From Candidatus Saccharimonadales bacterium (GTDB lineage Bacteria; Patescibacteriota; Saccharimonadia; Saccharimonadales; UBA4665), in contig DASTXH010000017.1 in assembly GCA_035758575.1 (NCBI GenBank), positions 22,945 through 86,944 of the forward strand: DNA of 64,000 nucleotides, read 5' to 3'. Both the position numbers and the translations under genes were made by a program. Positions 5,299 through 62,999 of the stretch are shown piece after piece. Positions within the stretch are counted from its first letter, which is position 1. Every line of letters begins with the position of its first letter. The notes under the pieces are model-generated. The model made no database searches and was not told the DNA's origin. It worked only from the letters and a program-made list of their open reading frames with translations.

Positions 5299-7581
5299 CT
5301 ACAACACGGGGGGCAGGCCAGTAATCGCATTGTAGTTACCGGCCGCGACACTTCCTCCACGCGGCAGCCAAAGCTCCGGCGTGTAGTTGATGGCCTCGCC
5401 GGCATGGCTGGCGGCGGGCGTATCGGTTATCTGTGCCTGCCCTACTGAACCATATGTGCGCAGGAAGTGCACTTGGTCGGCCACAAAGGCACCATTTACG
5501 GTCAGTTGTTTGTTGCATTGGGCATAGTAGCCGGGCAGCATGGGGTTTGCTTGCGCACCAAAACCTGAAGCGCACGTATAAATATTGCCGTTCGTACTGA
5601 CGACGCCACCAGCGCCTACAATGGGCTCGGCTACAAATAGGCCATCAAGCTGGGTTACATTGCTGCCAATATATATATTGCCACCGACCACCACAAGCTT
5701 GAAGAATGGTATCTGCCCAACATTCGTCCAGGAGCCGCCGCTGCCGGCGTATACAATATTGCCGTTGATGTACACATCTGCGTTCTTTACATAGCGGATA
5801 TCTTGTGCGCCCACAGCGACAGTGGTCGCACCAATCGTCATATTAGCTGTCGTGGGCGCCGTAGTGAGGTCGCTGGTGAAATCGCAGTCATTGGTGGTCG
5901 CGCCGGCATAGCCGCCAAACAAACCTTGCGATGGATTCAGCTGGCTGGCGTTTGCCGGATTGTAGTAGTTGGCTATGGACAAACCAGCCGGAGTCGTATT
6001 CGTACTGTTTTGCGCCGATGCGAAGTCCTGTATTTGGGCAAGTGCCTGAACGGCGTATTGCGTGCCAGCGCCAGAGAAGTTGGTGGCGTGATTATTCCAG
6101 CTATATATACCAGCTCTCGCGTCGACGTCCATTGAGCAGGCGCCATTTGTGTAATCTGGGCTAGCGCCTACTGTTACATCGCCGCCATAGACACTCATAT
6201 ACGGCAAGTATATTACGGGGAATGTGCTTGAGCAGGTCTTACTGCCAGAACTCCATTGCAGCGTCCACGTAGCCGTGAATACTCCCGCGTTGTTTGTCGG
6301 CCCAACGCCGCTGAATGTCGCCGTGGAAACACTGCCCGAACCACCTGCATTCTGCGTGCCCGTATACGTATAGGTCGCGCCGGCGGGCGGCGTAATCTGC
6401 AACTTCATGGTTGCATTCGGTGGCGTTTGATTGACGCCGTTTGTTACGCTGGCAGCAACAGAAAATGTGTTATACGGATCAATGCGTGATGGTGTAACCG
6501 TCATGCTGCCACATGCCAGCTGCACGCATGGCACAGCCGTACTAGCCGTAGCCACTTGTTGGTATGCCCCCGTCCCTCCGGGCCCGGTGTCCTTCACAAA
6601 CAACGCCACCCCCTGAGGCGTATACGGGTTCGTTGCAGACTGCGGAATGGTAACGGTTGCTGGTCCGGGGGAATTGTAGGTACCGGACGTCCAGCCGCCC
6701 GTCTTTACATACCCCGTCGTAGAGCCGTCTGGGTCCCTAAATGATATGGTGGCCACCTGCTGCTGCAGTGCCATATTACACGACAACGAAATGGTACCGG
6801 TCGGCGGTTGGTTGATGGTGGGTAGCTTTGGCGAATTCCCAACCAGGTTCGAACATCCACGCTGGATCATAAATGAGCCCCCGGGGAAATAGAATCTGAT
6901 AACGGCAATCGGCACGTTGACCGTTTTCCATACCCATCCAGTCGTCGCATCGTCACGGTATGCGCCTCCACATCCATCAACAGTGCAGGCCCATATGTTG
7001 GCGTGCGATATGTCGTCGCTGATGTTGTTGGGGTAACCGCCGTTATTAGCGAACCAGCTGCTGTTGACAGTTGGGTTTTGCAGCGTATTCCATTGGACAC
7101 CGTAAGCAGGATTGCCCGAGCTTGCATATGATTGCACGAGTGCCACCCATGCATTGAATGAACTCTTTGCAGCATTGATACCGGCACCGCACCCGCTTGA
7201 AGATGCGCCACGACCCATCATGGCGTTAATAACGAACGCTGCACCACATGTGTTTTGGCCAGGCCCACCGCTATACAGGTAGCCTTGGTAGATGGATATA
7301 AATGCAGCACAGGCCGAGCCACCGCCACAGCCCGTAGCCGCACCGCCAACATTAACAGGAGTAGATAATACGTTATAGTCATTGCATATATTTGGGATGC
7401 ACCCTGGCTTCTGGTTGGTAAAGTAACCCTTGCAGCCGCCCCATGTCCCTACCGAACAGAAGTGGTTCCAGAAGTCGATTTGCCATGGCGTGGCCGCATG
7501 CGCGGCCGGTTGATTCATAAAAAGCCCCACACCAGCGAAAGAGACAAAAAACAATACGACAATAAGGGTCTTTTTGATCAT
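5299..7581 (-). CDS. Large secreted/cell-surface protein, unknown family (Cys-rich N-terminal part, Gly/Thr/Ser-rich body)
   Basis: 760-aa ORF with signal-peptide-like N-terminus MIKKTLIVVLFFVSFAGVGLFMNQPAAHAA. No prepilin G/FTLxE motif. 4-nt overlap with the upstream TPR gene places it in the pilus operon. Confidence 0.7.
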   Translation of the reverse strand: MIKKTLIVVLFFVSFAGVGLFMNQPAAHAATPWQIDFWNHFCSVGTWGGCKGYFTNQKPGCIPNICNDYNVLSTPVNVGGAATGCGGGSACAAFISIYQGYLYSGGPGQNTCGAAFVINAMMGRGASSSGCGAGINAAKSSFNAWVALVQSYASSGNPAYGVQWNTLQNPTVNSSWFANNGGYPNNISDDISHANIWACTVDGCGGAYRDDATTGWVWKTVNVPIAVIRFYFPGGSFMIQRGCSNLVGNSPKLPTINQPPTGTISLSCNMALQQQVATISFRDPDGSTTGYVKTGGWTSGTYNSPGPATVTIPQSATNPYTPQGVALFVKDTGPGGTGAYQQVATASTAVPCVQLACGSMTVTPSRIDPYNTFSVAASVTNGVNQTPPNATMKLQITPPAGATYTYTGTQNAGGSGSVSTATFSGVGPTNNAGVFTATWTLQWSSGSKTCSSTFPVIYLPYMSVYGGDVTVGASPDYTNGACSMDVDARAGIYSWNNHATNFSGAGTQYAVQALAQIQDFASAQNSTNTTPAGLSIANYYNPANASQLNPSQGLFGGYAGATTNDCDFTSDLTTAPTTANMTIGATTVAVGAQDIRYVKNADVYINGNIVYAGSGGSWTNVGQIPFFKLVVVGGNIYIGSNVTQLDGLFVAEPIVGAGGVVSTNGNIYTCASGFGAQANPMLPGYYAQCNKQLTVNGAFVADQVHFLRTYGSVGQAQITDTPAASHAGEAINYTPELWLPRGGSVAAGNYNAITGLPPVL

Positions 7582-53871: not shown

Positions 53872-54402
53872 TTACTTTACCGCGCGGCGTTGGCGAACAT
53901 GAAAGCCAATCATAGCAATAGCGCCCATCGCCACCGCTACAACGGCTATGGTTTCCCCAGGGCCAGTATTCGGAATGTTGACGCTCGAAGCTGGAGGTGT
54001 AGTGGTGTCCGTTGTTTGCGAAGGCGTGCTAGCCGACGGAGAAGGTAAAACCGTAGACGGGCCAGGTGGTGGCGTTTGCTGGGTCGTGCTGCTGGAGGAA
54101 TTATTATTTGTTGCCGGGGGTGTAGGATTTGTACTCGTCGAGCCGTTGCCGGTTTGATTTTGTGCGACCTGCGAACTATTCACTGTATTTGAAGAATCAT
54201 TTTTCTTTGGTTTCATGTGGTTCAGCCACAGCCACAATCCGCCCGCGCCAATGATCACGATGATCATAAATATAAGCATAAAACGCAGTGCCGTACGGCG
54301 GGCGTGAGCCGCCACCGCCTGCTCACGGTAATACGGCCGCAGTTCAGGTGGAACGTCGGCCATTTCAGGCTGTGTATTTGATCTTTTGCCAAATAAACGC
54401 AT
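53872..54402 (-). CDS. Ser/Thr/Pro/Asn-rich surface protein with LPXTG-like sorting signal (IPNTG)
   Basis: 176 aa with an N-terminal TM anchor. The C-terminus reads NIPNTGPGE, then a hydrophobic helix (IAVVAVAMGAIAMIGF), then RQRRAVK, which is a sortase-substrate architecture. Confidence 0.65.
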   Translation of the reverse strand: MRLFGKRSNTQPEMADVPPELRPYYREQAVAAHARRTALRFMLIFMIIVIIGAGGLWLWLNHMKPKKNDSSNTVNSSQVAQNQTGNGSTSTNPTPPATNNNSSSSTTQQTPPPGPSTVLPSPSASTPSQTTDTTTPPASSVNIPNTGPGETIAVVAVAMGAIAMIGFHVRQRRAVK

Positions 54403-54594: not shown

Positions 54595-56241
54595 CTACAT
54601 CATTCCCATTCCGCCCATGTCCGGCGCCCCACCGCCGCCCTTCTCTTCTTTTGGCACTTCCACTACCAATGCACCCATGGTCATGCTGGTGCCGGCAATG
54701 CTCACGGCATTCTGCACGGCTTCCTTGGTTACGCGGGTTGGGTCAACCACGCCGCTAGCCTTTAGGTCTACCAGCTTGGTTGCGTCATTGACGTTGACAC
54801 CGTGGCCCGGCTTAGCAGCGCGTACTTGCGGCAGCCACTCGTCAGCATTCAGGCCAGCGTTAGTGAGCAGAATGCGGAATGGCTGTTCCAGCGCCTTGAT
54901 GAGCAACTGGCGGCCAGCGGCAACAGAGGTATCGTCGTCGGTTGCGGCAATGGCAGTGGTCAGATTGATGAGCGTTACGCCACCGCCAGGCACGATACCG
55001 TCGGCCAAGGCGGCCTTTACAGCAGCTACGGCGTCATCGACACGGTACTTCTTCTCTTCAATTTCGGTTTCAGTAGCGCCACCAACCTTGATGACAGCTA
55101 CCTTGCCGCTGAGTGCAGCGCGGCGCTTCTCGAGGTTTTCTTTATCATACTCGCTCTTGGCAGCATCAATCTGTTGGTTGATCTGCTTGATTCGGGCATT
55201 TACCTCGGCCGGCGAACCACCACCTTCGATGATGGTTGTCTCGTCTTTGGTAACGATCACCTTGCGGGCAGAACCAACCACGCCTAGGTCGACGTTCTCG
55301 AACGTCATACCGCGGTCTTCGGTGATTACCTCAGCGCCCGTCAGGATAGCGATGTCGTTCAGCATGTCCTTGCGGCGGTCACCGAAGGCAGGCGCCTTGA
55401 CGGCAACCGTATTGAACACACCCTTTAGACGATTAAGGATCAGTGTACCGAGCGCCTCGCCGTCAACATCTTCGGCAATCAGCACCAGATCTTTCTTACC
55501 GCTTTGGGCGATTTTCTCAAGCAGCGGCAGGAATTCCTGGATACTGGATACCTTCTTGTCGGTCACCACGATGGCCGGCTTGTCGTAGACAGCTTCCATG
55601 CGACCGGTGTCGGTAACCATGTAGGCACTAACGAAACCACGGTCGAAGGTAAAACCCTCTACCACTTCGCTTTCCAGCGCCAAACCCTGGCCTTCTTCTA
55701 CCGTGACCACACCGTCTTTGCCGATGGCTTCCATGACATCAGCAATCAGATTGCCGATTTCAGCATCACCCGCGGAGATAGTAGCGACCTCGGCCACGCG
55801 GCTCTTCTTGCCGGCGATGTCTTCGGTCATGGTGCTAAGCTTGGCGATTACTTCCTGCGCGGCAGCCTCAAGGCCCTTGCGCAGCAGCATCGGGTTATGG
55901 CCGGCGGCAATCAGCTTGTTAGCTTCGTTCAGGATGTGGTAGGTCAGCACCGTTACGGTAGTGGTACCGTCGCCAGCTACATCGTTCATCTTACTGGCAG
56001 CTTGCTTTATCAGCTCGGCGCCAACTTTGTAGCCCAACGTTTCGTCGTCTACGTCGCCCAGCTCTACGCCTTTGGCAACGGTAACACCATCATGCGTAAC
56101 GGTCGGTGCGCCATAGCTTTTGCTAATGACCACATTACGACCCTTCGGACCCATAGTGGTCTTTACCGCATCGTACAGAATCTTGGCGCCGGCCAGTACG
56201 CGGCGGCGGGCGTCGTCATCATAAAAGACTTTTTTTGCCAT
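54595..56241 (-). CDS. groL: Chaperonin GroEL
   Basis: 548 aa with AKKVFYDDDARRRVLAGAKILYDAVKTTMGPKGRNVV... and a GGM-type tail (GGMGMM). Confidence 0.97.
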   Translation of the reverse strand: MAKKVFYDDDARRRVLAGAKILYDAVKTTMGPKGRNVVISKSYGAPTVTHDGVTVAKGVELGDVDDETLGYKVGAELIKQAASKMNDVAGDGTTTVTVLTYHILNEANKLIAAGHNPMLLRKGLEAAAQEVIAKLSTMTEDIAGKKSRVAEVATISAGDAEIGNLIADVMEAIGKDGVVTVEEGQGLALESEVVEGFTFDRGFVSAYMVTDTGRMEAVYDKPAIVVTDKKVSSIQEFLPLLEKIAQSGKKDLVLIAEDVDGEALGTLILNRLKGVFNTVAVKAPAFGDRRKDMLNDIAILTGAEVITEDRGMTFENVDLGVVGSARKVIVTKDETTIIEGGGSPAEVNARIKQINQQIDAAKSEYDKENLEKRRAALSGKVAVIKVGGATETEIEEKKYRVDDAVAAVKAALADGIVPGGGVTLINLTTAIAATDDDTSVAAGRQLLIKALEQPFRILLTNAGLNADEWLPQVRAAKPGHGVNVNDATKLVDLKASGVVDPTRVTKEAVQNAVSIAGTSMTMGALVVEVPKEEKGGGGAPDMGGMGMM

Positions 56242-56255
56242 GTCCTCTTATCTCC

Positions 56256-56522
56256 TTATTTTACGGTCGCAAGTACATCTTCCTCTTTGACGAGGATATA
56301 CTCTTCCGTACCCATTTTTACATCGGTAGTGCTGTAGCTCTTGTAGATAATGCGGTCGCCGACCTTAATTTGCTTGGCGTCTTTACCTACGGCTACTACT
56401 TTAGCAACTTTCGGCTTCTCAGCGGCTTTTTCCGGCAGATATAAACCACTGGCCGTTTTGGTCTCGGGTTCTTCGCTTTGTGCGACCACGTAGTCACCGA
56501 GCGGTTGAATATGAACACTCAT
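56256..56522 (-). CDS. groS: Co-chaperonin GroES
   Basis: 88 aa with IQPLGDYVVAQ...GLYLPEKA... and the mobile loop. Confidence 0.95.
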   Translation of the reverse strand: MSVHIQPLGDYVVAQSEEPETKTASGLYLPEKAAEKPKVAKVVAVGKDAKQIKVGDRIIYKSYSTTDVKMGTEEYILVKEEDVLATVK

Positions 56523-56585: not shown

Positions 56586-56612
56586 TCAGCACTCAATATA
56601 GCCAAGTGCTAA
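56586..56612 (-). promoter_or_regulatory. CIRCE operator (HrcA site) overlapping the groES promoter
   Basis: Reverse strand TTAGCACTT-N9-GAGTGCTGA against consensus TTAGCACTC-N9-GAGTGCTAA (8/9 and 8/9). Confidence 0.7.
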
Positions 56613-56623
56613 CCGCGGGTCAA
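56595..56623 (-). promoter_or_regulatory. Candidate groES promoter (TTGACC-N17-TATATT)
   Basis: The -35 TTGACC (56618-56623) overlaps the stop of the upstream gene. The -10 TATATT (56595-56600) lies in the CIRCE spacer. Confidence 0.5.
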
Positions 56624-57345
56624 GAGGGAAGCATGCGGTTAAGCGTATCCATAAGCTGTAGCGCCTCTTGGTCCCGTTCTCTAGTACTAACGAAATTATG
56701 TCGTGTCTTGTTGTAGACCTTCGACTGGTGACGCGTGAGGACGATAAGTTCAAATGGCACTTGTCGGTTGCCTACTGTCGTGTGTAGTTTCGCCTGTAAT
56801 ATACCTTGTCGAACGAACCGTGGGTCACTAGCGCCGTTCGCAAGCGGGCTGATCTCACCTCCTTCGAACTCGCAGCATGCATGCTCTAACACACGCCGCG
56901 GAAGTACATCATTGGGCGTTCGGACCAAAAAAGCATATAAATCACTGATTCTATCTGTCGAGGCAGCGTTTTCCCGACGCTTGACCTTACCAAGGATGCT
57001 GCTGATCTCTTTCGTGCGCCCAGCCAGTTCCAGAACGTTCGCCTCGAACGGCGAATTGCACAGCATTTTAAGCACGTGTTCACCGATGGCATACCCCACT
57101 TCTTTCATCTCGCTCTGGATTCTCTCGTGCTCGTACACCAGTCCTGGAATGAAGCAAGAGGCTTCAGCGCCGCAGCCAAGCGCACCTATAGTTCGAGCAA
57201 TCTCCTGCCGCCACCGGATAATATCCATGACTTCAGGCTGCTCGAGATATGTTTCTGGCGGCTTCAGCTCAGCTTCATAAGAAGACCACGGGTAGTACTC
57301 ACCTGTGGGGGGCGTCATTATGAGTGATTCGTATGGGTTAATCAT
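56620..57345 (-). CDS. Hypothetical protein (unit 3 of the leader-controlled orphan cluster)
   Basis: 241 aa from ATG 57345 (247 aa from TTG 57363). No recognisable motif. Preceded by leader copy 1. Confidence 0.55.
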   Translation of the reverse strand: MINPYESLIMTPPTGEYYPWSSYEAELKPPETYLEQPEVMDIIRWRQEIARTIGALGCGAEASCFIPGLVYEHERIQSEMKEVGYAIGEHVLKMLCNSPFEANVLELAGRTKEISSILGKVKRRENAASTDRISDLYAFLVRTPNDVLPRRVLEHACCEFEGGEISPLANGASDPRFVRQGILQAKLHTTVGNRQVPFELIVLTRHQSKVYNKTRHNFVSTRERDQEALQLMDTLNRMLPS

Positions 57346-57361
57346 AAATACTTTCTGTAAC

Positions 57362-57392
57362 AAAAATCTCCCTCGGGATTCGAGGGAGATTT
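57362..57392 (-). terminator. Intrinsic terminator of leader copy 1
   Basis: Reverse strand AUCUCCCUCG-aaucc-CGAGGGAGAU followed by UUUUUG. It ends about 20 nt before ATG 57345. Confidence 0.7.
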
Positions 57393-57435
57393 GTAGTGTT
57401 GTTCCTTATTTCGTGATGCGTTTTTTTACGCTACG

Positions 57436-57492
57436 CTACAATCTCCCTCTTGCTTGAGGAAAATGACCATGTGGTCGAGAATGTATTGGCAT
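57436..57492 (-). CDS. Candidate 18-aa leader peptide MPIHSRPHGHFPQARGRL (copy 1)
   Basis: ATG at 57492 and TAG at 57436-57438 inside antiterminator arm A. The only two substitutions against copy 2 are synonymous. No Shine-Dalgarno seen. An alternative overlapping 24-aa frame exists. Confidence 0.3.
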   Translation of the reverse strand: MPIHSRPHGHFPQARGRL

Positions 57493-57528
57493 AAAGACAT
57501 CGTTATATGCGCTCCCTGGTTTAAGTAA

Positions 57529-58503
57529 TTACCGTTTGTTAGCGTCACCATACCGCGCTCCTCTGCCACTATCTATCTCGCGCAATGCGGCCTCTGGGTC
57601 TTCGAGAAATAAATGTGCGTTGAGATGGTTTGCGTGGAAAAAGTCTGCCATATCATTAGCGCGCAACATACGGATTATGCGCGCCGCACTCCCTAGGTCC
57701 AGCGCCGGCATACCCTCTGATTGCCTTAGGTTTCGCTCGCGCAAAATATGAGCCAAGCCCACGAGCGCCATCTTACCCTCAAATGTGGTTCTTATAGAAA
57801 AAGCTTCAAGGGTTGCCGTCGCAGGTCCGTCTATTGCTTGGTCGCGCCACGTCCATTTACCTTCGCGCCAACGGTTATCGTGTGCCGTACCCAACACCGT
57901 AACTCGTGGATGTCCAATAAGCTCTTCCACGAGCGGCTGGAATGTCCGGGCATATTCCTCAGCCGCACTGCGGGAGCGCGCCTTGCCACTACTGCCCTTA
58001 TAGCCAAGGTAGTCAACATTATCTAGAATCACCACACCGCCCGCATACTGGGCATGCTCCATGAAACGCACAAGAGGCTCGCGAATGTTTTCGACACCAG
58101 TACGCTTGCCAGCATTCACATGTGTCGATAATGCGAACGTCGGAACGTTATGGACGACTGCCGCTACCTGCAGATCACGCACAAGGTGACTTTTGCCACT
58201 GACAGGCGCCCCCTCCACGAGTACAGATCCGCTAGTCTTTAATCCTTGGGCTATTCCACCTACTTCTGTAAAGCTGCTTTCATCGGGTAAGGATTCTAAT
58301 AAATCACCTAGATCCCCGGGCGTTTCAGGTGTAAACAGCCAGTATCCTCGTCCATTCGCTGAATTTTGTTCGATCTCATTTGGCCGAGCAGCTAGAGGGT
58401 AATTATTTACTGACGTCATAGATGCATATTTAAACACACCAATACCAGACCATCCCATATTTGGGCCATTTGCCGTAGATGTATCGTGTAATTCCAGACT
58501 CAT
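57529..58503 (-). CDS. P-loop ATPase (AAA-like), N-terminal unknown domain (unit 2 of the cluster)
   Basis: 324 aa with Walker A VEGAPVSGKSHL, a Walker B-like GGVVILDNVD and a sensor-like VTVLGTAHD. Confidence 0.7.
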   Translation of the reverse strand: MSLELHDTSTANGPNMGWSGIGVFKYASMTSVNNYPLAARPNEIEQNSANGRGYWLFTPETPGDLGDLLESLPDESSFTEVGGIAQGLKTSGSVLVEGAPVSGKSHLVRDLQVAAVVHNVPTFALSTHVNAGKRTGVENIREPLVRFMEHAQYAGGVVILDNVDYLGYKGSSGKARSRSAAEEYARTFQPLVEELIGHPRVTVLGTAHDNRWREGKWTWRDQAIDGPATATLEAFSIRTTFEGKMALVGLAHILRERNLRQSEGMPALDLGSAARIIRMLRANDMADFFHANHLNAHLFLEDPEAALREIDSGRGARYGDANKR

Positions 58504-58516
58504 ATAATTTCTTTAT

Positions 58517-58548
58517 AAAAAATCTCCCCCGGTATTCGAGGGAGATAT
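58517..58548 (-). terminator. Intrinsic terminator of leader copy 2
   Basis: Reverse strand AUCUCCCUCG-aauac-CGGGGGAGAU followed by UUUUUU. One U-A pair of copy 1 is U-G here. It ends 14 nt before ATG 58503. Confidence 0.7.
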
Positions 58549-58663
58549 GTAGGTGTTACTTTAACTTCGTGATGCGTTTTTTACGCTACGCTACAATCTC
58601 CCTCTTGCTTGAGGAAAATGACCGTGTGGCCGAGAATGTATTGGCATGAAAACGTAGACATCG
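58518..58663 (-). promoter_or_regulatory. Conserved leader/attenuator element, copy 2
   Basis: Same architecture as copy 1: arm A 58591-58605, arm B 58537-58552, arm C 58522-58532. Confidence 0.6.
58591..58647 (-). CDS. Candidate 18-aa leader peptide MPIHSRPHGHFPQARGRL (copy 2)
   Basis: Peptide identical to copy 1 despite two nucleotide changes (CGA/CGG and CAT/CAC). Confidence 0.3.
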   Translation of the reverse strand: MPIHSRPHGHFPQARGRL

Positions 58664-58669
58664 TGGGCG

Positions 58670-58697
58670 ATTATATATACTTTTATAGGAAAGTCAA
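58670..58697 (-). promoter_or_regulatory. Candidate sigma-70 promoter of leader copy 2 (TTGACT-N16-TATAAT)
   Basis: The -35 (58692-58697) starts right after the stop of the kinase-like gene. The -10 (58670-58675) lies 8 nt upstream of an ATG (58659-58661) that opens the alternative 26-aa leader frame. Confidence 0.5.
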
Positions 58698-58698
58698 A

Positions 58699-59502
58699 CT
58701 AGGCAGGCTTCTCTACCGTGAGAAGCCACTCAGGCTTAAAACGAGCATCATTGGTCCACCGCTCGACAATCTTCGGCTGGTCCTTATAAGACACAGGCAG
58801 GTGAGGCTGATAGCCCAGCGCATCGAAATACGGTTCGAGCAGCACAGTGCTTAACTCATTAGCGCGTACCCGATTATCCTTTATGTCTCCCAGGTAACCG
58901 CTCCACAACGCAGAGACGCCCATGCTATACAAGTCGTGACATATACGAACACCAAATTCGCTCTCGGTGACATTCTCGTTGAATACTGTTTTTTCGGCAT
59001 CAAAGTATATGAACGAACCATCGGCTGCGAATGCCATATTCCAGATTTTGAGGTCGCCGTGGGAAATGCCGCGGTCATGAAGCGCTGCTGCGACCGTCGC
59101 CATGCGTCCAAAGGTCTTCGTCAGTCGATCCTGACGTACTCTGTCTTCAGAGCTTGGAGTCCAATCCAGATGAGATAAAGGCCGGATGTCTTCACGATAC
59201 GTCAATAGAATATGCCTATCATAGCTGCTCACTACACCTATAGGCTCTACCACTTTCAAGCCCGGCATATTCTCCTCAGCAACGCTTTCAAGGTTGTCGA
59301 GCTCCGCATGGGCATACCTACGCGCGGCATGGGGCTTTGCGACGACTGGGCCATATTGTGTCAAAACACCCGGAACTACGCCGTGTGCCGACTGGCGCAT
59401 GCCCGCTGCGAGGTGCGTAGCATCAGGAATAAACGTCAAACCCATCACAGAATGGATATCTTCTGCGACTTGCTTAGCATGCATTTCGTACGCTTGGCTC
59501 AT
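58699..59502 (-). CDS. Protein-kinase-like fold protein (APH/ChoK/Kdo/RIO-type catalytic loop)
   Basis: 267 aa with catalytic loop ISHGDLKIWNMAF (HxDxxxxN) and downstream metal-binding Asp in IYFDAEK. No clear Gly-rich loop. Confidence 0.65.
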   Translation of the reverse strand: MSQAYEMHAKQVAEDIHSVMGLTFIPDATHLAAGMRQSAHGVVPGVLTQYGPVVAKPHAARRYAHAELDNLESVAEENMPGLKVVEPIGVVSSYDRHILLTYREDIRPLSHLDWTPSSEDRVRQDRLTKTFGRMATVAAALHDRGISHGDLKIWNMAFAADGSFIYFDAEKTVFNENVTESEFGVRICHDLYSMGVSALWSGYLGDIKDNRVRANELSTVLLEPYFDALGYQPHLPVSYKDQPKIVERWTNDARFKPEWLLTVEKPA

Positions 59503-60071
59503 TGTTTCATTCCTTGGGTAATTTCAGACTGCAAACTTGTAACTACCGATCTTTCAAATAGAGACTTGAACGTATGGGCGATAGATTTCTTCATCCACAG
59601 TTCGTAGGCAGCGGTAGTCACCTCTGCTTGAGTAAAAATGACAGGCGGGACGTAGTACAGCTCGTTCGTCCTCATGTCTATAGCCACATCATCCACTCGA
59701 ACTACCGGAGGACGGATTGGCTGCTGCGCAGCCTCATACAGCAGTTGTCCAATGGCGCGATATATCGGCTTCAAATCCTCAATTCCGGCCGCCCCAAATT
59801 CACGCGTCACTGCCGCCACTGACGCAAGATAGGGCGGCACCTCGTATGTCGAGAAGTCCCCGCCTTCCACGACGCGCTGCAGCGTATGCGGCGTATCGTC
59901 TGACGCTTCGCCATACCCATTCGTATCTCGTACGGCTATATATTCCCGGCCGCCACGCACGTATTGCACCACATCATCAGCTAATGGACGTAGCTCGTGC
60001 GTTGGGTCTACGGGCGTCGGGTTTTCCGCCATGAGGTTTGACCAGGTTTCTGTTGAAATCATCTGGCACAT
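59499..60071 (-). CDS. Hypothetical protein (unit 1, translationally coupled to the kinase-like gene)
   Basis: 190-aa ORF with a 4-nt ATGA overlap with the downstream kinase-like gene. Start uncertain (alternative Met codons at residues 4 and 14). Confidence 0.5.
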   Translation of the reverse strand: MCQMISTETWSNLMAENPTPVDPTHELRPLADDVVQYVRGGREYIAVRDTNGYGEASDDTPHTLQRVVEGGDFSTYEVPPYLASVAAVTREFGAAGIEDLKPIYRAIGQLLYEAAQQPIRPPVVRVDDVAIDMRTNELYYVPPVIFTQAEVTTAAYELWMKKSIAHTFKSLFERSVVTSLQSEITQGMKQ

Positions 60072-60133
60072 ACGATATACGAAATATATCTTTCCTGCAA
60101 TTAAGGTTTTGCTTTAATAGCTTTACTAGTACA

Positions 60134-60164
60134 AATAAAATCTCCCTCGTGTTGAGAGAGATTC
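60134..60164 (-). terminator. Intrinsic terminator of the degenerate third leader copy
   Basis: Reverse strand AUCUCUCUC-aaca-CGAGGGAGAU-UUUAUUUGU. The stem mismatch is a U-G wobble only on the reverse strand. Confidence 0.6.
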
Positions 60165-60255
60165 TGTCATCTAGCGTAATGCTCTTGTCTACAACATCAT
60201 TCTCTCGGGCGACAATTGAGAAAAATCTCTATAAGCGTGTAGAACATGGCTATTA

Positions 60256-61563
60256 TTATAACACTTTACTATATTTAGTCAACAGTTGCCTCGTCAAAAC
60301 AATTTCGTCCCAAGGATGCTCGCCGTCGGCACGCTCTATGGTTTTTTCATGGCCTTTGCCCAGCAGCAATACCGTATCGCCTTTTTGTGCACGTTTTAAG
60401 GTAAAGGCTATAGCCTGCTTACGGTCGTGCACCAAGAACAAATTTTTATCACGAGTTTTGCCCGCCGCCTCGGCGCCACTGGCGATCTGGTTCAGAATTT
60501 GCATGCCATCGATATCTCGGTCGTCTTCTTCGGTCAGGATCACTTCGTCGGCATACTCGCCGGCCAGCCTGCCCTGTACTGCCCGTTTTGCTTCGTCGCG
60601 CCGGCCGGCGCTGCCGAACATCACGATCATTCTGCCCTTTACGACCGGCCGTAAATCTTTGAATAATTTTTCGAAGCTGTCCGGAGTATGCGCATAGTCC
60701 ACGATCACGTCGAAATCCTGACCCTCGTCTATCGTCGTCATACGTCCTGCAACGCCCTGTAAAGCGGCAATCCCCTGCTCTATCTGCTTTTTGTTCAAGC
60801 CCAGCGCCCGGCCTACACAGACTGCCGCCAAGCTGTTCTGCACATAAAACTCACCAGGAATGTGGCATACGATGTCGTAGCTGTCGCTCCCGGCTACGGC
60901 CGTATACCGGCTGCCACTTGGCGTACATTTAACGTCCTTTGCACGCACATCGCCGCCGTGCACACCATACAGTATCGGATGCGGGGTGGTATGCGCAAAG
61001 CGCTCGCCCTGCGTATCATCTGCATTGGCAATGCCTGTTTGCAAACCTTTCTTGTTTGCCGCCACCAGTCTGAACAAACGTCGCTTCGCCTCACTGTAGC
61101 GCTCAAATGTCTTGTGATAATCAAGGTGCTCGTGAGTGATATTGGTGAGTACGCCTACAGAAAAAGGTACGCCCCACACCCTGTACTGCGCCAAAGCCTG
61201 GCTCGTCACTTCCAACACCAGCCAATCTATTTTCTGCTCACGCATCCATTGCAGCCGGCGCATCAGCTCCGGCACTGGCACATTGGTGTAGTGATGAACC
61301 TGCTGGCGAATATCGTCGTCCACACCATACGACACGGTGGTCATAATGCCAGTCTTATAGCCGGCGCTGACCAGCATACGGTGAATAAAAAAGGCAGTCG
61401 ATGTTTTACCGTTTGTGCCCGTTACGCCAATCACCTTCATATCCCGCCCCGGGAAACCATGCATAGTATTCAACAATACAGCCTCGCCGAGATGGCCGTA
61501 GGGCTCAATTGCATGGAATGCGCTAGCAGGGATGACTTTTTTAACAACTCTACGGATATTCAT
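60256..61563 (-). CDS. murE: Mur ligase family protein (MurE-like UDP-MurNAc-tripeptide synthetase, short N-terminus)
   Basis: 435 aa with VIGVTGTNGKTSTAFF P-loop, the central domain motif NITHEHLDYH and a C-terminal domain. The P-loop is at residue ~50 instead of ~110. Confidence 0.8.
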   Translation of the reverse strand: MNIRRVVKKVIPASAFHAIEPYGHLGEAVLLNTMHGFPGRDMKVIGVTGTNGKTSTAFFIHRMLVSAGYKTGIMTTVSYGVDDDIRQQVHHYTNVPVPELMRRLQWMREQKIDWLVLEVTSQALAQYRVWGVPFSVGVLTNITHEHLDYHKTFERYSEAKRRLFRLVAANKKGLQTGIANADDTQGERFAHTTPHPILYGVHGGDVRAKDVKCTPSGSRYTAVAGSDSYDIVCHIPGEFYVQNSLAAVCVGRALGLNKKQIEQGIAALQGVAGRMTTIDEGQDFDVIVDYAHTPDSFEKLFKDLRPVVKGRMIVMFGSAGRRDEAKRAVQGRLAGEYADEVILTEEDDRDIDGMQILNQIASGAEAAGKTRDKNLFLVHDRKQAIAFTLKRAQKGDTVLLLGKGHEKTIERADGEHPWDEIVLTRQLLTKYSKVL

Positions 61564-61609: not shown

Positions 61610-62638
61610 TTAGGCGGTCTTGGCCGTCTTGATAATTGTGGCCGTCATGTCATCTGCCCGCTTGCCGCCCATTCCTTGGGCGCCGCGCACACGCATGTCA
61701 TCTGTTTGAGATGTGCGAGCATATGCGGCATGCACGATCACTTTCGCACCCAGCGCCGGGTTGCCAAGATCTGCGAACAGCTCGGCCACAGCTGCAGTGA
61801 ACTGGCCGTCACCGTCAAGGGATTGATCATGTTTCAACAGTTCGCGTATCCTGCTATCTTTAGGCAACCGACCCGTCTCTGCCATCGTCATAAGGTCTAA
61901 TAGTTCCGGGTCAGTTAGGAGATCGTGGATGCCGTCAGTACAGAGCAATAGCCTATCCCCAGGCAACATCCTAAAAGAATGCAGCTCCAAAGCCGGTTCC
62001 TTCTCGTAGCTATGATACCCAACAGCTCGGTTGCGAATCGCAAACTGGCCAAGGAATTGGCCTAAGTCGGCCGTCTTTGTGGCATCGGCCATTACTACCT
62101 GCGCCTCTTTGGTATGTGTTTTGCCACCGTTGTCGAGGGTAAGCACCTGGAACGTATCGCCTCTCATAGGGCTGTCTAGGTAGGCCCGCGTGTCACCAAC
62201 GTTAAAAACCGTAACGTGTGTCTGCTCTGGCTGGTGCCGCCCATTGGGTAGAGCATGTGCAGGCACGTCATAAAACCTTGCACCCACCACAACAGATCCT
62301 ATGCCTCGCTTATTTGGATCAGCTTTTACTATATCCGCATACGTCTGTGCACCTGCAGCCTTTATCGCGTTGGTAACGTCCTGATCGGTTGTTTGCCAGC
62401 GCGGAACGTCAAGGTAATTACTCATGCTTTTTATCACCTGCGCAGAAGCAACTTCACCGCTAGCTTCACCACCCATACCATCGGCTACAATAAAAGTATA
62501 CGTTCCTTCGAAATGAGCATCCTCATTGCGATGCGGATGATCTTCACTGGCAAGGCTATACGACCCCGCAACGGGGTGTAGTGCTAATCGCTCGTAGTGC
62601 TGTTTTGGCGCATTAAGCTGTTCTTCGTGCATAACCAC
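61610..62638 (-). CDS. PP2C-family Ser/Thr protein phosphatase with C-terminal extension
   Basis: 342 aa with FIVADGMGGEASGEVAS (motif II) and LLLCTDGIHD. Confidence 0.85.
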   Translation of the reverse strand: MVMHEEQLNAPKQHYERLALHPVAGSYSLASEDHPHRNEDAHFEGTYTFIVADGMGGEASGEVASAQVIKSMSNYLDVPRWQTTDQDVTNAIKAAGAQTYADIVKADPNKRGIGSVVVGARFYDVPAHALPNGRHQPEQTHVTVFNVGDTRAYLDSPMRGDTFQVLTLDNGGKTHTKEAQVVMADATKTADLGQFLGQFAIRNRAVGYHSYEKEPALELHSFRMLPGDRLLLCTDGIHDLLTDPELLDLMTMAETGRLPKDSRIRELLKHDQSLDGDGQFTAAVAELFADLGNPALGAKVIVHAAYARTSQTDDMRVRGAQGMGGKRADDMTATIIKTAKTA

Positions 62639-62681: not shown

Positions 62682-62999
62682 TCAACGCTGGGCCGGTGTA
62701 CGTCGGTTAGACACTATTTCTTCTGCAGCATCCAACATGGTTGCTTCAAAAAGCTCACGATATTTTACAGGAAGCGCGGCTTCGGCCCATTGCATGATCT
62801 CTTCCGGTGTTTTGCCTGCACTTTGCATATCAACGATGTGTTCTGCCTGATCATCGGTCAGCAAGCTTGGAACTACGGAAGCCAACCGACTCTGCGTAAG
62901 CCGCACCATCTGCTGCACTGTCGCCACTTTCACTTCCTTGCTCTCCTTGTCGAGCCCAAGAATAGTCAGTGCCTGTTCGTACAACTGCGTATCGGTCAT
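62682..62999 (-). CDS. Small helical hypothetical protein
   Basis: 105-aa ORF between the PP2C gene and the upstream ORF. No motif. Confidence 0.45.
   Translation of the reverse strand: MTDTQLYEQALTILGLDKESKEVKVATVQQMVRLTQSRLASVVPSLLTDDQAEHIVDMQSAGKTPEEIMQWAEAALPVKYRELFEATMLDAAEEIVSNRRTPAQR

Follow-up and report, generated by a model that had tools for sequence, protein, structure and literature searches.

Why do two genes lying between a Mur ligase gene and groES in a soil member of the Saccharibacteria each follow a copy of the same non-coding element? The locus lies in a 64 kb stretch, referred to here as the window, of a metagenome-assembled genome of Candidatus Saccharimonadales, a lineage of the candidate phyla radiation (CPR), and all of the locus features described below are on the minus strand. 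The initial annotation had reported four co-directional genes in this interval, here named orfA to orfD. These are present where they were mapped (Table 1), as are the ATGA overlap between orfA and orfB and the motifs HGDLKIWN and FDAEK in orfB and GAPVSGKSH and VVILDNVD in orfC. It had also taken the spacers in front of these genes to carry a repeated attenuator. The repeated element is indeed a real leader that contains a terminator, and attenuator is still its best reading. With moderate confidence, we propose that the leader copies act as serial ribosome-dependent transcription attenuators, which would couple the translation of a mini open reading frame (ORF) to the transcription of orfC, probably coding for an AAA+ ATPase, and of orfD, coding for a protein with a RelA/SpoT homolog (RSH) fold. 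This reading draws on the architecture, conservation and covariation observed in the leader, on the folds of the proteins and on the synteny of the locus.

The element is about 145 nt long, and its copies in the spacers before orfC (IG2) and orfD (IG3) are 95% identical over 77 nt and 86% identical over another 49 nt. A covariance model built from seven leader copies and run on the window gave 166 bits for IG3, 155 bits for IG2 and 21.9 bits (E ~0.02) for IG1, the spacer before orfA. No further copy was found in the window with this model, the other matches being reverse-strand matches of palindromic terminators only. Likewise, the GAGGGAGATT-type motif occurs eight times in the window against 2.1 expected, every time within the three spacers. 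The claim that a homologous element precedes each transcription unit thus holds for IG2 and IG3, which are true copies, but not for IG1, which is no close copy. The companion claim, that a U-tract terminator stands directly before each start codon, fares in the same way: it is correct for orfC (13 nt) and orfD (16 nt to the ATG at 57345) but not for orfA (65 nt).

The distribution of the leader bears on a possibility that the initial annotation had itself raised, namely that the copies belong to a dispersed repeat. Structured DNA pattern scans returned no match in GTDB genomes and none in IMG/VR, and a pattern scan of JGI metagenomes returned a single match, the contig of a related locus with the same synteny (L002). 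As these scans and the covariance model gave no copy elsewhere, the leader is locus-specific and not a dispersed repeat. It also matches no described RNA family: Rfam gave no match over the whole window at gathering thresholds and, over the locus at E values up to 10, only the rimP leader at E = 4.2, a match that rests mostly on the terminator hairpin. The leader of the window is 92% identical to that of L002 over 171 nt, compared with 78-82% in the flanking coding DNA, and homologous leaders precede orfD-like genes in L002, L007, L006 and L014, the last of which encodes an orfD protein with only 28% identity.

Each leader copy harbors a short ORF. A sigma70-type promoter (P2) stands upstream of the IG2 leader and is kept before the leader in L002, L007, L014 and L009; none was found for the IG3 copy. 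The frame-1 ORF is intact in all six full copies, every indel being a multiple of three. Its predicted peptide is MSTFSCQYILGHTVIFLKQEGDCSVA in both IG2 and L002, MSSFSSQYILGHTVIFLKQEGDCSVA in L007, MSLCQYILDHMVIFLKQEGDCSVA in IG3, MIRQYIFGHMVFILKQEGDCSVA in the 3′ copy of L017 and in L006, and MTYMQSHIFGYTLVLKSEGEYVAV in L014, with conservative replacements throughout (L/F, H/Y, V/L, I/V, D/E). The ATG lies 8-9 nt past the TATAAT box in the four promoter-proximal full copies (4/4) and 7 nt past it in IG1. The two promoter-less copies, IG3 and the 3′ copy of L017, both of which follow orfC, have a GGAG or GGGAG 9-11 nt before the ATG, as would be required for an internal ORF to be translated. 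A frame-2 ORF in the leader (MPIHSRPHGHFPQARGRL, His/Arg/Pro-rich), in which both differences between IG2 and IG3 are synonymous, was dropped, as its ATG is missing in L007 and in the 3′ copy of L017.

A start codon this close to the −10 box suggests a leaderless mRNA, and the same geometry recurs elsewhere in the window. At least seven ORFs of 224-942 aa start 7-10 nt after a TATAAT-like hexamer (Table 1), and the orfC homolog of L013 apparently starts 9 nt past a TATAAT, so that leaderless initiation seems normal in this lineage. The pattern suggests widespread leaderless mRNAs in this Saccharimonadales genome. Clear GGAGG Shine-Dalgarno sites are found instead before groES, groEL and other genes. 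As a separate observation, the called orfD start of L006 lies about 150 nt past the leader terminator, and this stretch (positions 114-254) contains a 46-codon ORF starting MTERQLDTDADLPHCW that is not in the other loci; it may be a real gene or may reflect a miscalled orfD start.

The leader has the capacity for alternative RNA structures. Region 2 (GAGGGAGAUUGUAG) corresponds to codons 19-23 of the ORF in IG2, the stop codon following 8 nt further on. It is able to pair back with region 1 (UCUC..CCUC), which is within the ORF, or forward with region 3 (CUACAnAUCUCCCUC), giving a 14-bp antiterminator. Region 3 is at the same time the 5′ arm of the terminator, AUCUCCCUCG-N5-CGrGGGAGAU-U5-7, which has a 10-bp GC-rich stem. 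The pairings were examined in an alignment of the seven copies, which come from about five lineages. In the antiterminator helix, 98% of the cells pair and three pairs show compensatory changes, whereas slid-register controls reach 34-63%; in the terminator and in the region 1:2 helix, 98% of the cells also pair, with changes that are only wobble-compatible. Calculated energies are −22 to −27 kcal/mol for the 2:3 helix and −14 to −18 kcal/mol for the terminator hairpin. Constrained folds with region 1 blocked gave the 2:3 helix in four of six copies, and those with the stop-codon region blocked gave the terminator in all copies. Finally, no promoter was found between the terminator and either orfC or orfD, so their expression must come by read-through.

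These data also bear on a simpler scenario, in which each leader is a self-contained small gene: a promoter followed by the coding sequence of a 24-26-aa hydrophobic peptide and by a terminator, with the downstream genes expressed through leaky termination only and no regulated switch. Promoter, ORF and terminator do make up a complete transcription unit, and the peptide is conserved with conservative replacements. However, such a gene would leave orfC and orfD, 13-16 nt past the U-tract, with no promoter of their own, and it would have no need for a 14-bp helix that competes with the terminator and shows compensatory changes. We regard this scenario as very unlikely.

The third spacer, IG1, has the same architecture as the other two, its likeness to them at the nucleotide level being limited to the terminator core. 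The position of its 16-codon ORF behind the strong promoter P1 suggests a leaderless mRNA here as well. The end of this ORF and its stop codon lie within GAGAGAAUGA, which can pair with the UCUCUC of the terminator 5′ arm, and a UUCUC/GAGAA pairing of the 1:2 type is also possible. The antiterminator pairing amounts to −12.5 kcal/mol against −11.4 kcal/mol for the terminator. We regard IG1 as a diverged, possibly decayed paralog of the leader.

The sequence of events that we propose is as follows. The sigma70 promoter would yield a transcript whose 5′ end coincides with the AUG of the ORF (16-26 codons) or precedes it by 1-2 nt, and the ORF would be translated as a leaderless mRNA, the internal copies initiating through their GGAG. 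A ribosome that reaches the stop codon would cover region 2 and let the terminator form (OFF). A ribosome stalled earlier in the ORF would free region 2, so that the antiterminator could sequester the 5′ arm of the terminator and RNA polymerase could read into the gene (ON). The switch would gate orfC first and then, in series, orfD, with its pyrophosphokinase-like product, and the locus would be a translation-stress-responsive unit. The orfA-orfB pair would form a bicistron of its own, with fast turnover, downstream of a decayed copy of the switch.

This scheme resembles the attenuators of amino acid operons, such as the trpL, hisL, ilv, thr and pheA leaders. Common to both are a conserved in-frame short ORF, the exclusive pairings 1:2, 2:3 and 3:4, a terminator next to the first gene, a competing antiterminator overlapped by the ORF, and a stop codon placed such that a terminating ribosome masks region 2. 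Unlike those leaders, the copies described here have no run of cognate codons, precede genes that are not biosynthetic, contain an apparently leaderless ORF, occur in series and belong to a CPR bacterium. A second class of comparison is the stress- or antibiotic-responsive upstream ORF attenuators, among them ermK, vmlR, bmrCD and the msr/lsa-type ABCF leaders. As in these, stalling on a short hydrophobic peptide would favor the antiterminator and the output would be stress-related, but no resistance gene lies downstream and no known arrest motif was identified. From its sequence, the leader peptide looks more like a sequence-specific arrest peptide than like a regulatory-codon leader.

The second gene under this proposed control, orfD, had been listed as a 247-aa protein with no assignable function, a description that can now be replaced. 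The start is most likely the ATG at 57345, giving 241 aa as in the homolog P0002, rather than the TTG within the U-tract. The family is very small, with three close homolog clusters in 5.8 billion proteins and 13 profile matches in 1.84 billion representatives, none functionally named and two labeled only "hypothetical protein". Its motifs LAGRTKEISSILGKVKRRE, ISDLYAF and VPFELIVLT resemble those of RelA/SpoT synthetases. A family profile searched against the PDB placed solely RSH/(p)ppGpp synthetases (Rel, SAS) at the top of the list (E = 6e-4), and sub-threshold Pfam matches to RelA_SpoT were found in 11 of 15 family members. An AlphaFold2 model (pLDDT 86), which has a long two-helix extension at the N-terminus, was compared with the PDB using Foldseek; the best 50 matches were all RSH synthetase domains (SAS1, RelP, CapRel, FaRel2, Rel and Tas1), with a best E value of 1.3e-5, TM scores of 0.4-0.5 and 9-18% sequence identity. 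Based on this model and the profile matches, orfD encodes a very divergent protein with a RelA/SpoT fold of the small alarmone synthetase (SAS)-like type.

The conserved residues give an indication of the chemistry. K118 (of GRxK), K126, R129-R130, D141 and F204-E205 are invariant in the 15-member family and S122 is nearly so, R116 is invariant among the seven closer members, and the ATP-binding motif region GRxKxxxSxxxKxxRR aligns to T. thermophilus Rel. As the residues for ATP binding and the two catalytic acids (Asp and Glu) are kept and the acceptor residues changed, the pyrophosphate-donor chemistry is probably retained. The acceptor-site assignment was made by motif position and predicted strand order and not by residue-level superposition. 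Compared with the small synthetases (SAS1/YjbM/RelQ and SAS2/YwaC/RelP) and the domains of long RSH proteins, orfD shares the fold, the profile matches, the GRxKxxxSxxxKxxRR motif, the Asp of ISD and the Glu of FE, but differs in its low identity, sub-cut-off Pfam score, replaced acceptor residues, N-terminal extension and 13-match family. No canonical long RSH was found among the ten large ORFs of the window that were scanned. According to one paper, most Saccharibacteria have an annotated (p)ppGpp synthetase, and the soil member T. rhizospherense has none (PMC6031116).

Several points weigh against the attenuation reading. All three compensatory changes in the antiterminator come from L014, within an alignment of only seven copies from about five lineages. 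When region 1 is blocked, two of the six copies keep the terminator at full-length equilibrium, and in nascent RNA with no ribosome the 2:3 helix is already the minimum-energy fold; the OFF state would therefore hinge on the leader being occupied by ribosomes or on the 1:2 helix acting as a kinetic trap. In IG1, the antiterminator pairing is weak. The leader ORFs have no tandem codons for a cognate amino acid, and codon usage revealed neither repeated regulatory codons nor a rare-codon cluster in the leader ORFs. The 26-nt core of the leader, AGCAAGAGGGAGATTGTAGCGTAGCG, is invariant in six of seven copies, third-codon positions included, which a constraint at the RNA level or from a bound protein would explain as well as coding. 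On the protein side, orfD scores 17.9 bits with Pfam PF04607 (RelA_SpoT), below the 27-bit cut-off, and neither the G-loop Tyr nor the Gln and Arg of EvQiRT are kept at its acceptor site (QAKLH and ELIVLT, respectively), so that its activity and acceptor are uncertain. Lastly, translation of the leader ORF, the switching, the inducing signal and the substrate of the enzyme are what we infer from these data.

Some of these points could equally be accommodated by an attenuator that does not depend on a peptide, in which a metabolite (as in a riboswitch) or an RNA-binding protein would act on the 26-nt core and on the hairpin between regions 2 and 3, the ORF being incidental. The invariance of the core at third-codon positions and the lack of repeated regulatory codons in the leader peptide would fit such a mechanism, as would the two differences between IG2 and IG3 within the ORF, which are structure-neutral (one changes a G-U to an A-U pair and the other is in a loop). 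However, Rfam offered nothing up to an E value of 10 save the rimP leader, and conservation is lowest between regions 2 and 3, where the element varies in both sequence and length, unlike an aptamer. In addition, a peptide-independent model does not predict that the ORF should be kept, in frame and at a set distance from the −10 box, or that the promoter-less copies should carry a GGAG. We therefore consider this alternative unlikely and retain ribosome-dependent attenuation as the preferred reading.

The first gene in the series, orfC, is 100% identical to an NCBI hypothetical protein (VFT53_02175). It has the Walker A motif GAPVSGKSH and the Walker B motif VVILDN, in which the usual Glu is absent (LDN). 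The score against Pfam AAA is 15.9 bits (cut-off 21.2), and the family profile matched AFG2 (E = 5.6e-6), RFC3 (1e-4), ClpX and FtsH, aligning from Walker A to sensor 1. Judging from these alignments, orfC is probably a single-module classic AAA+ ATPase of about 300 aa. It resembles the classic AAA+ proteins (AFG2/SPATA5L1, Cdc48, FtsH, ClpX and RFC) over this whole stretch but differs from them in having a single module, no protease or substrate-recognition domain and LDN rather than DE in Walker B. The family is so far confined to Saccharibacteria. A GTDB scan with the profile added only two distant loci (33-35% identity), whose upstream regions are different and contain no leader.

The orfB protein had been called protein-kinase-like, and this description stands, as all the catalytic residues are kept: K56, E67, H148-x-D150-x4-N155 and D168 are invariant in four sequences that are 23-63% identical. 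Its homologs in 5.8 billion proteins form two clusters only, one with an identical sequence and the other 64% identical. Weak matches were obtained to Kdo kinase, Bud32, RIO, LanKC-type and APH models, each below its curated cut-off. With Pfam APH (cut-off 23.2), orfB scores 12.4 bits and the related kinase P0035 20.9 bits, and Kdo/Bud32 models and protein-kinase structures match equally well or better. An AlphaFold2 model built from a two-sequence alignment was unusable (pLDDT 36.6). We conclude from the sequence comparisons that orfB is a minimal protein-kinase-like enzyme, nearer to Bud32/Kdo/RIO than to APH/MPH. It keeps the catalytic Lys, the alpha-C Glu, the HxDxxxxN motif and the Asp equivalent to that of DxE/DFG found in Bud32, RIO, KdkA/WaaP, the LanKC kinase domain and APH, but differs from all of them in matching only below cut-off and in the size of its family. 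This ranking speaks against one option of the initial annotation, an antibiotic-type phosphotransferase of the APH/MPH kind. Another of its options, a defence-like system, found little to build on: PADLOC gave only a weak match of the orfB kinase domain to MkoA (5e-5), its models matched none of orfA, orfC and orfD, and PADLOC, PHROGs and NCBIfam together gave these three no meaningful assignment.

By sequence, orfA is an orphan protein. Its size is 190 aa, or 187 aa if translated from the ATG at 60062, which equals that of the 187-aa neighbor of P0035. BLASTP and hhalign comparisons of orfA with the 167/169-aa proteins at its position in L002 and L007 and with kinases were negative, leaving no support for the idea that it could be a pseudokinase.

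Comparison with related loci shows how these genes are assembled. The backbone is conserved (ValRS, TsaD, ..., Mur ligase, a gap, groES, groEL, PGI, ArgRS) and the content of the gap is variable. In L009-L013 (orfC 45-54% identical), the gap holds orfC alone, with no leader in L010-L013. In L002-L005 and L007, it holds a 167/169-aa protein and a 323/325-aa kinase-like protein followed by promoter, leader and orfD, with no orfC. The contig of P0022 (orfD 32% identical), judged by gene sizes and spacing only, has overlapping 197-aa and 272-aa genes, a 234-nt gap, orfD and groES. L014 has two unrelated genes on the opposite strand, then promoter, leader and orfD, and no kinase-like neighbor. The order leader-orfC-leader-orfD occurs in the window and in one other organism (SRR33230361, contigs L017 and L006) only; orfA-orfB lies upstream in the window, and that part was not assembled in L017 and L006.

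These last two contigs break at the leader repeat and have an exact 26-nt overlap. Short-read assemblies break at this point, exactly within the leader, as seen in L001 (1168 nt) and L017 (1169 nt), both of them Logan contigs, and at the start of L006. As a result, orfC is found on its own on a contig of about 1.17 kb flanked by leader halves, and the orfD contig begins at the invariant 26-nt core. The linkage of orfC and orfD will thus be under-counted in metagenome surveys.

The lone orfC homolog of L009 (49% identical) is itself preceded by a leader of the same kind. Within positions 5820-5990 are a promoter (TTGACA-17-TATAAT), an ATG 9 nt later opening a 24-codon ORF (MIMVYTQRKFIIVCLFPNGRGAVE), and a terminator (AAATCTCCC-N11-GGGAGATTTTTTT). 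This leader is barely alignable (22 bits with the covariance model), and a search of it for a convincing antiterminator found none.

Between L007 and the window, the Mur ligase is 93% and orfD 97% identical, whereas the kinase is only 25% identical to orfB and the small protein is unrelated to orfA, which points to a swap of the A/B cassette in the lineage of the window. The small-protein/kinase cassettes lie at 8319-9799 in L002 and at 986-2469 in L007; their kinases are 23-25% identical to that of the window, their small proteins are unrelated to orfA, and the pairs of L002 and L007 are 63-72% identical to each other. In this sense, gene turnover has a local hot spot at the cassette site. 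The position of orfD before groES is kept even as its identity falls from 97% to 28%, which argues for vertical inheritance and not mobility. This comparison marks leader-orfD beside groES as an old unit passed on vertically; orfC occupies the Mur ligase/groES site as an alternative or an addition and can carry the same kind of leader; and the A/B pair is a fast-turning-over neighbor that is often but not always found with orfD.

These patterns contradict the proposal that the four genes are one obligate functional module co-regulated by three attenuator copies. Such a module would account for genes that are co-directional and tightly packed, for the single architecture of all three spacers, for the presence of an A/B-like pair with orfD in the window, in L002-L005 and L007 and, as far as gene sizes and spacing tell, in the P0022 contig, and for the recurrence of leader-orfC-leader-orfD in a second genome. 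Nevertheless, orfC occurs alone in five loci, A/B occurs with orfD but no orfC in another five, orfD occurs with no A/B in L014, the A/B pairs of L002 and L007 have no leader (36 nt separate them from the Mur ligase), and the likeness of IG1 to the leader is weak. This small synteny sample already points towards families that co-occur no more often than their separate frequencies would predict, and we find the proposal quite improbable. For the PP2C phosphatase that the initial annotation had noted just upstream, and which passes its Pfam cut-off, no match was found in L002, the sole relative whose retrieved DNA covers that position.

Turnover of this kind is typical of conflict systems, and it raises the question of whether orfD could instead be a toxSAS-type toxin, either a growth-arresting alarmone synthetase or a tRNA pyrophosphokinase, with orfA/orfB and possibly orfC as antitoxin or sensor, so that the locus would be an island of the toxin-antitoxin or defence kind. 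In favor of this, A/B has been exchanged (23-25% identity) next to an orfD that is 97% identical; orfD is small and consists of the RSH domain only; CapRel and FaRel2 are among its Foldseek matches (1e-4); its family is rare and patchy, as the 13 matches indicate; and orfB has the weak match to MkoA mentioned above. Its resemblance to toxSAS proteins (FaRel2, CapRel and PhRel) and to the type VI secretion system effector Tas1 extends to a small stand-alone RSH fold, with structural matches of 1e-4 to 2e-3. However, no antitoxin or immunity gene is adjacent and no pseudo-ZFD is fused. No gene overlaps or abuts orfD, which is separated from its upstream neighbor by a leader of about 200 nt, complete with promoter and attenuator, and is followed by groES. 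Its site directly upstream of groES is fixed, its neighbors vary between lineages, and in L014 none is kinase-like. PADLOC has no match for orfA, orfC or orfD, a tblastn search with orfD of phages and plasmids found no homolog, and the pattern scan found no leader copy in the viral contigs of IMG/VR. In structure, the housekeeping enzymes SAS1 and RelP fit orfD better than the toxSAS structures do. We therefore judge a toxin improbable and return to orfD as the output of an attenuator.

Downstream of orfD, the leader may extend its influence to the chaperonin genes. No terminator was found between orfD and groES, so transcription would continue into groES-groEL. A CIRCE-like inverted repeat, of the HrcA operator type, is interleaved with the groES promoter and begins at the stop codon of orfD; this operator and promoter place groESL under its own heat-shock control besides any read-through from orfD. 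A role in translation or proteotoxic stress is plausible given this gene content, in line with the stress or translation-surveillance option of the initial annotation.

From a biological perspective, CPR bacteria such as the Saccharibacteria have tiny genomes, take amino acids and nucleotides from their hosts and are seldom cultured, and to our knowledge, little cis-regulatory RNA has been described in them. One can imagine a translation-stress circuit of soil Saccharibacteria in which arrest peptides sense ribosome stalling, caused by amino acid scarcity or by translation inhibitors made by the host, and activate, one after the other, an AAA+ ATPase and an enzyme from a new family with the RelA/SpoT fold, with read-through into GroES/GroEL. 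The product might be a nucleotide second messenger or a modified tRNA, the circuit might replace or supplement, in a way specific to CPR, the stringent response of ribosome-bound RelA, and the hypervariable kinase pair might serve as input or antagonist. Taken as a whole, this extended picture is speculative and stands a small chance of being right.

Leader-peptide attenuation as a class of mechanism and the protein folds are already known. What is new is a leader family with no Rfam match, the design of leaderless mini-ORFs in series in a CPR bacterium, and the conserved coupling of the leader to a rare, divergent RSH family beside groESL. Our literature searches returned no account of such a system, no paper linking toxSAS with Patescibacteria and none on attenuator-controlled small alarmone synthetases. 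If true, an attenuator that reads the progress of the ribosome on a leaderless mini-ORF would exemplify how CPR bacteria sense translation stress. The orfD proteins represent a new and very rare branch of the RelA/SpoT fold, whose changed acceptor site means that the product may differ from (p)ppGpp. The fixed leader-orfD site by groESL, with cassette turnover nearby, also illustrates how a small genome may build and rewire a stress locus.

Table 1 Positions of the features of the locus and of other features mentioned in the text, numbered along the window.
Feature	Position	Strand	Remarks
105-aa protein upstream of PP2C	62682-62999		
PP2C phosphatase	61610-62638	-	above the Pfam PP2C_2 cut-off
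Mur ligase	60256-61563	-	
Promoter P1	60255-60282	-	TTGACT-16 nt-TGtTATAAT, 11/12 matches, extended -10; -10 box overlaps the Mur ligase stop codon
IG1 spacer	60072-60255	-	
IG1 leader ORF	60197-60247	-	16 codons, MFYTLIEIFLNCRPRE then stop; ATG 60247, 7 nt past the -10 box
IG1 intrinsic terminator	60133-60165	-	AGAAUCUCUCUC-AACAC-GAGGGAGAUUUU; 65 nt before orfA
orfA	59499-60071	-	190 aa
orfB	58699-59502	-	267 aa; ATGA overlap with orfA
Promoter P2	58670-58697	-	TTGACT-16 nt-TATAAT, 11/12 matches; upstream of the IG2 leader
IG2 spacer	58504-58698	-	
IG2 leader ORF	58581-58661	-	26 codons, MSTFSCQYILGHTVIFLKQEGDCSVA then stop; ATG 8 nt past the -10 box
IG2 region 2	58591-58604	-	GAGGGAGAUUGUAG; antiterminator 5′ arm, within the last codons of the leader ORF
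IG2 region 3, terminator hairpin and U6 tract	58517-58552	-	region 3 is CUACAUAUCUCCCUCG; ends 13 nt before the orfC ATG
orfC	57529-58503	-	324 aa
IG3 spacer	57364-57528	-	
IG3 leader ORF	57426-57516	-	24 codons, MSLCQYILDHMVIFLKQEGDCSVA then stop; ATG 57500; GGGAG 11 nt upstream
IG3 region 2	57436-57449	-	
IG3 region 3	57381-57396	-	
IG3 terminator and U-tract	57362-57390	-	ends 16 nt before the orfD ATG
orfD	56620-57345	-	241 aa from ATG 57345; open frame reaches TTG 57363 (247 aa, mechanical ORF list)
groES promoter and CIRCE-like inverted repeat	56586-56623	-	TTGACC-17 nt-TATATT; TTAGCACT-N9-GAGTGCTGA
groES	56256-56522	-	
groEL	54595-56241	-	
176-aa ORF downstream of groEL	53872-54402	-	
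Starts with -10-N7-10-ATG geometry (examples)	36682; 28998; 45257; 50632; 9395; 32029; 51354	+; -; -; -; +; -; -	

Outside this interval, the other large ORFs of the window are chromosomal housekeeping genes, coding for a PilB-type ATPase, FtsK, RNase J, PNPase, PolA, DnaG and ArgRS. Upstream of the Mur ligase, the 105-aa protein beyond PP2C is conserved in L002 (29% identity), and where the window has a 292-aa ORF and PP2C, L002 has an 887-aa protein, two genes upstream of the Mur ligase. Downstream of groEL, the product of the 176-aa ORF has a low-complexity stretch rich in Pro, Thr, Ser and Asn and, at its C-terminus, IPNTG followed by a hydrophobic segment and the basic tail RQRRAVK; by these sequence features, it looks like a sortase-anchored surface protein.

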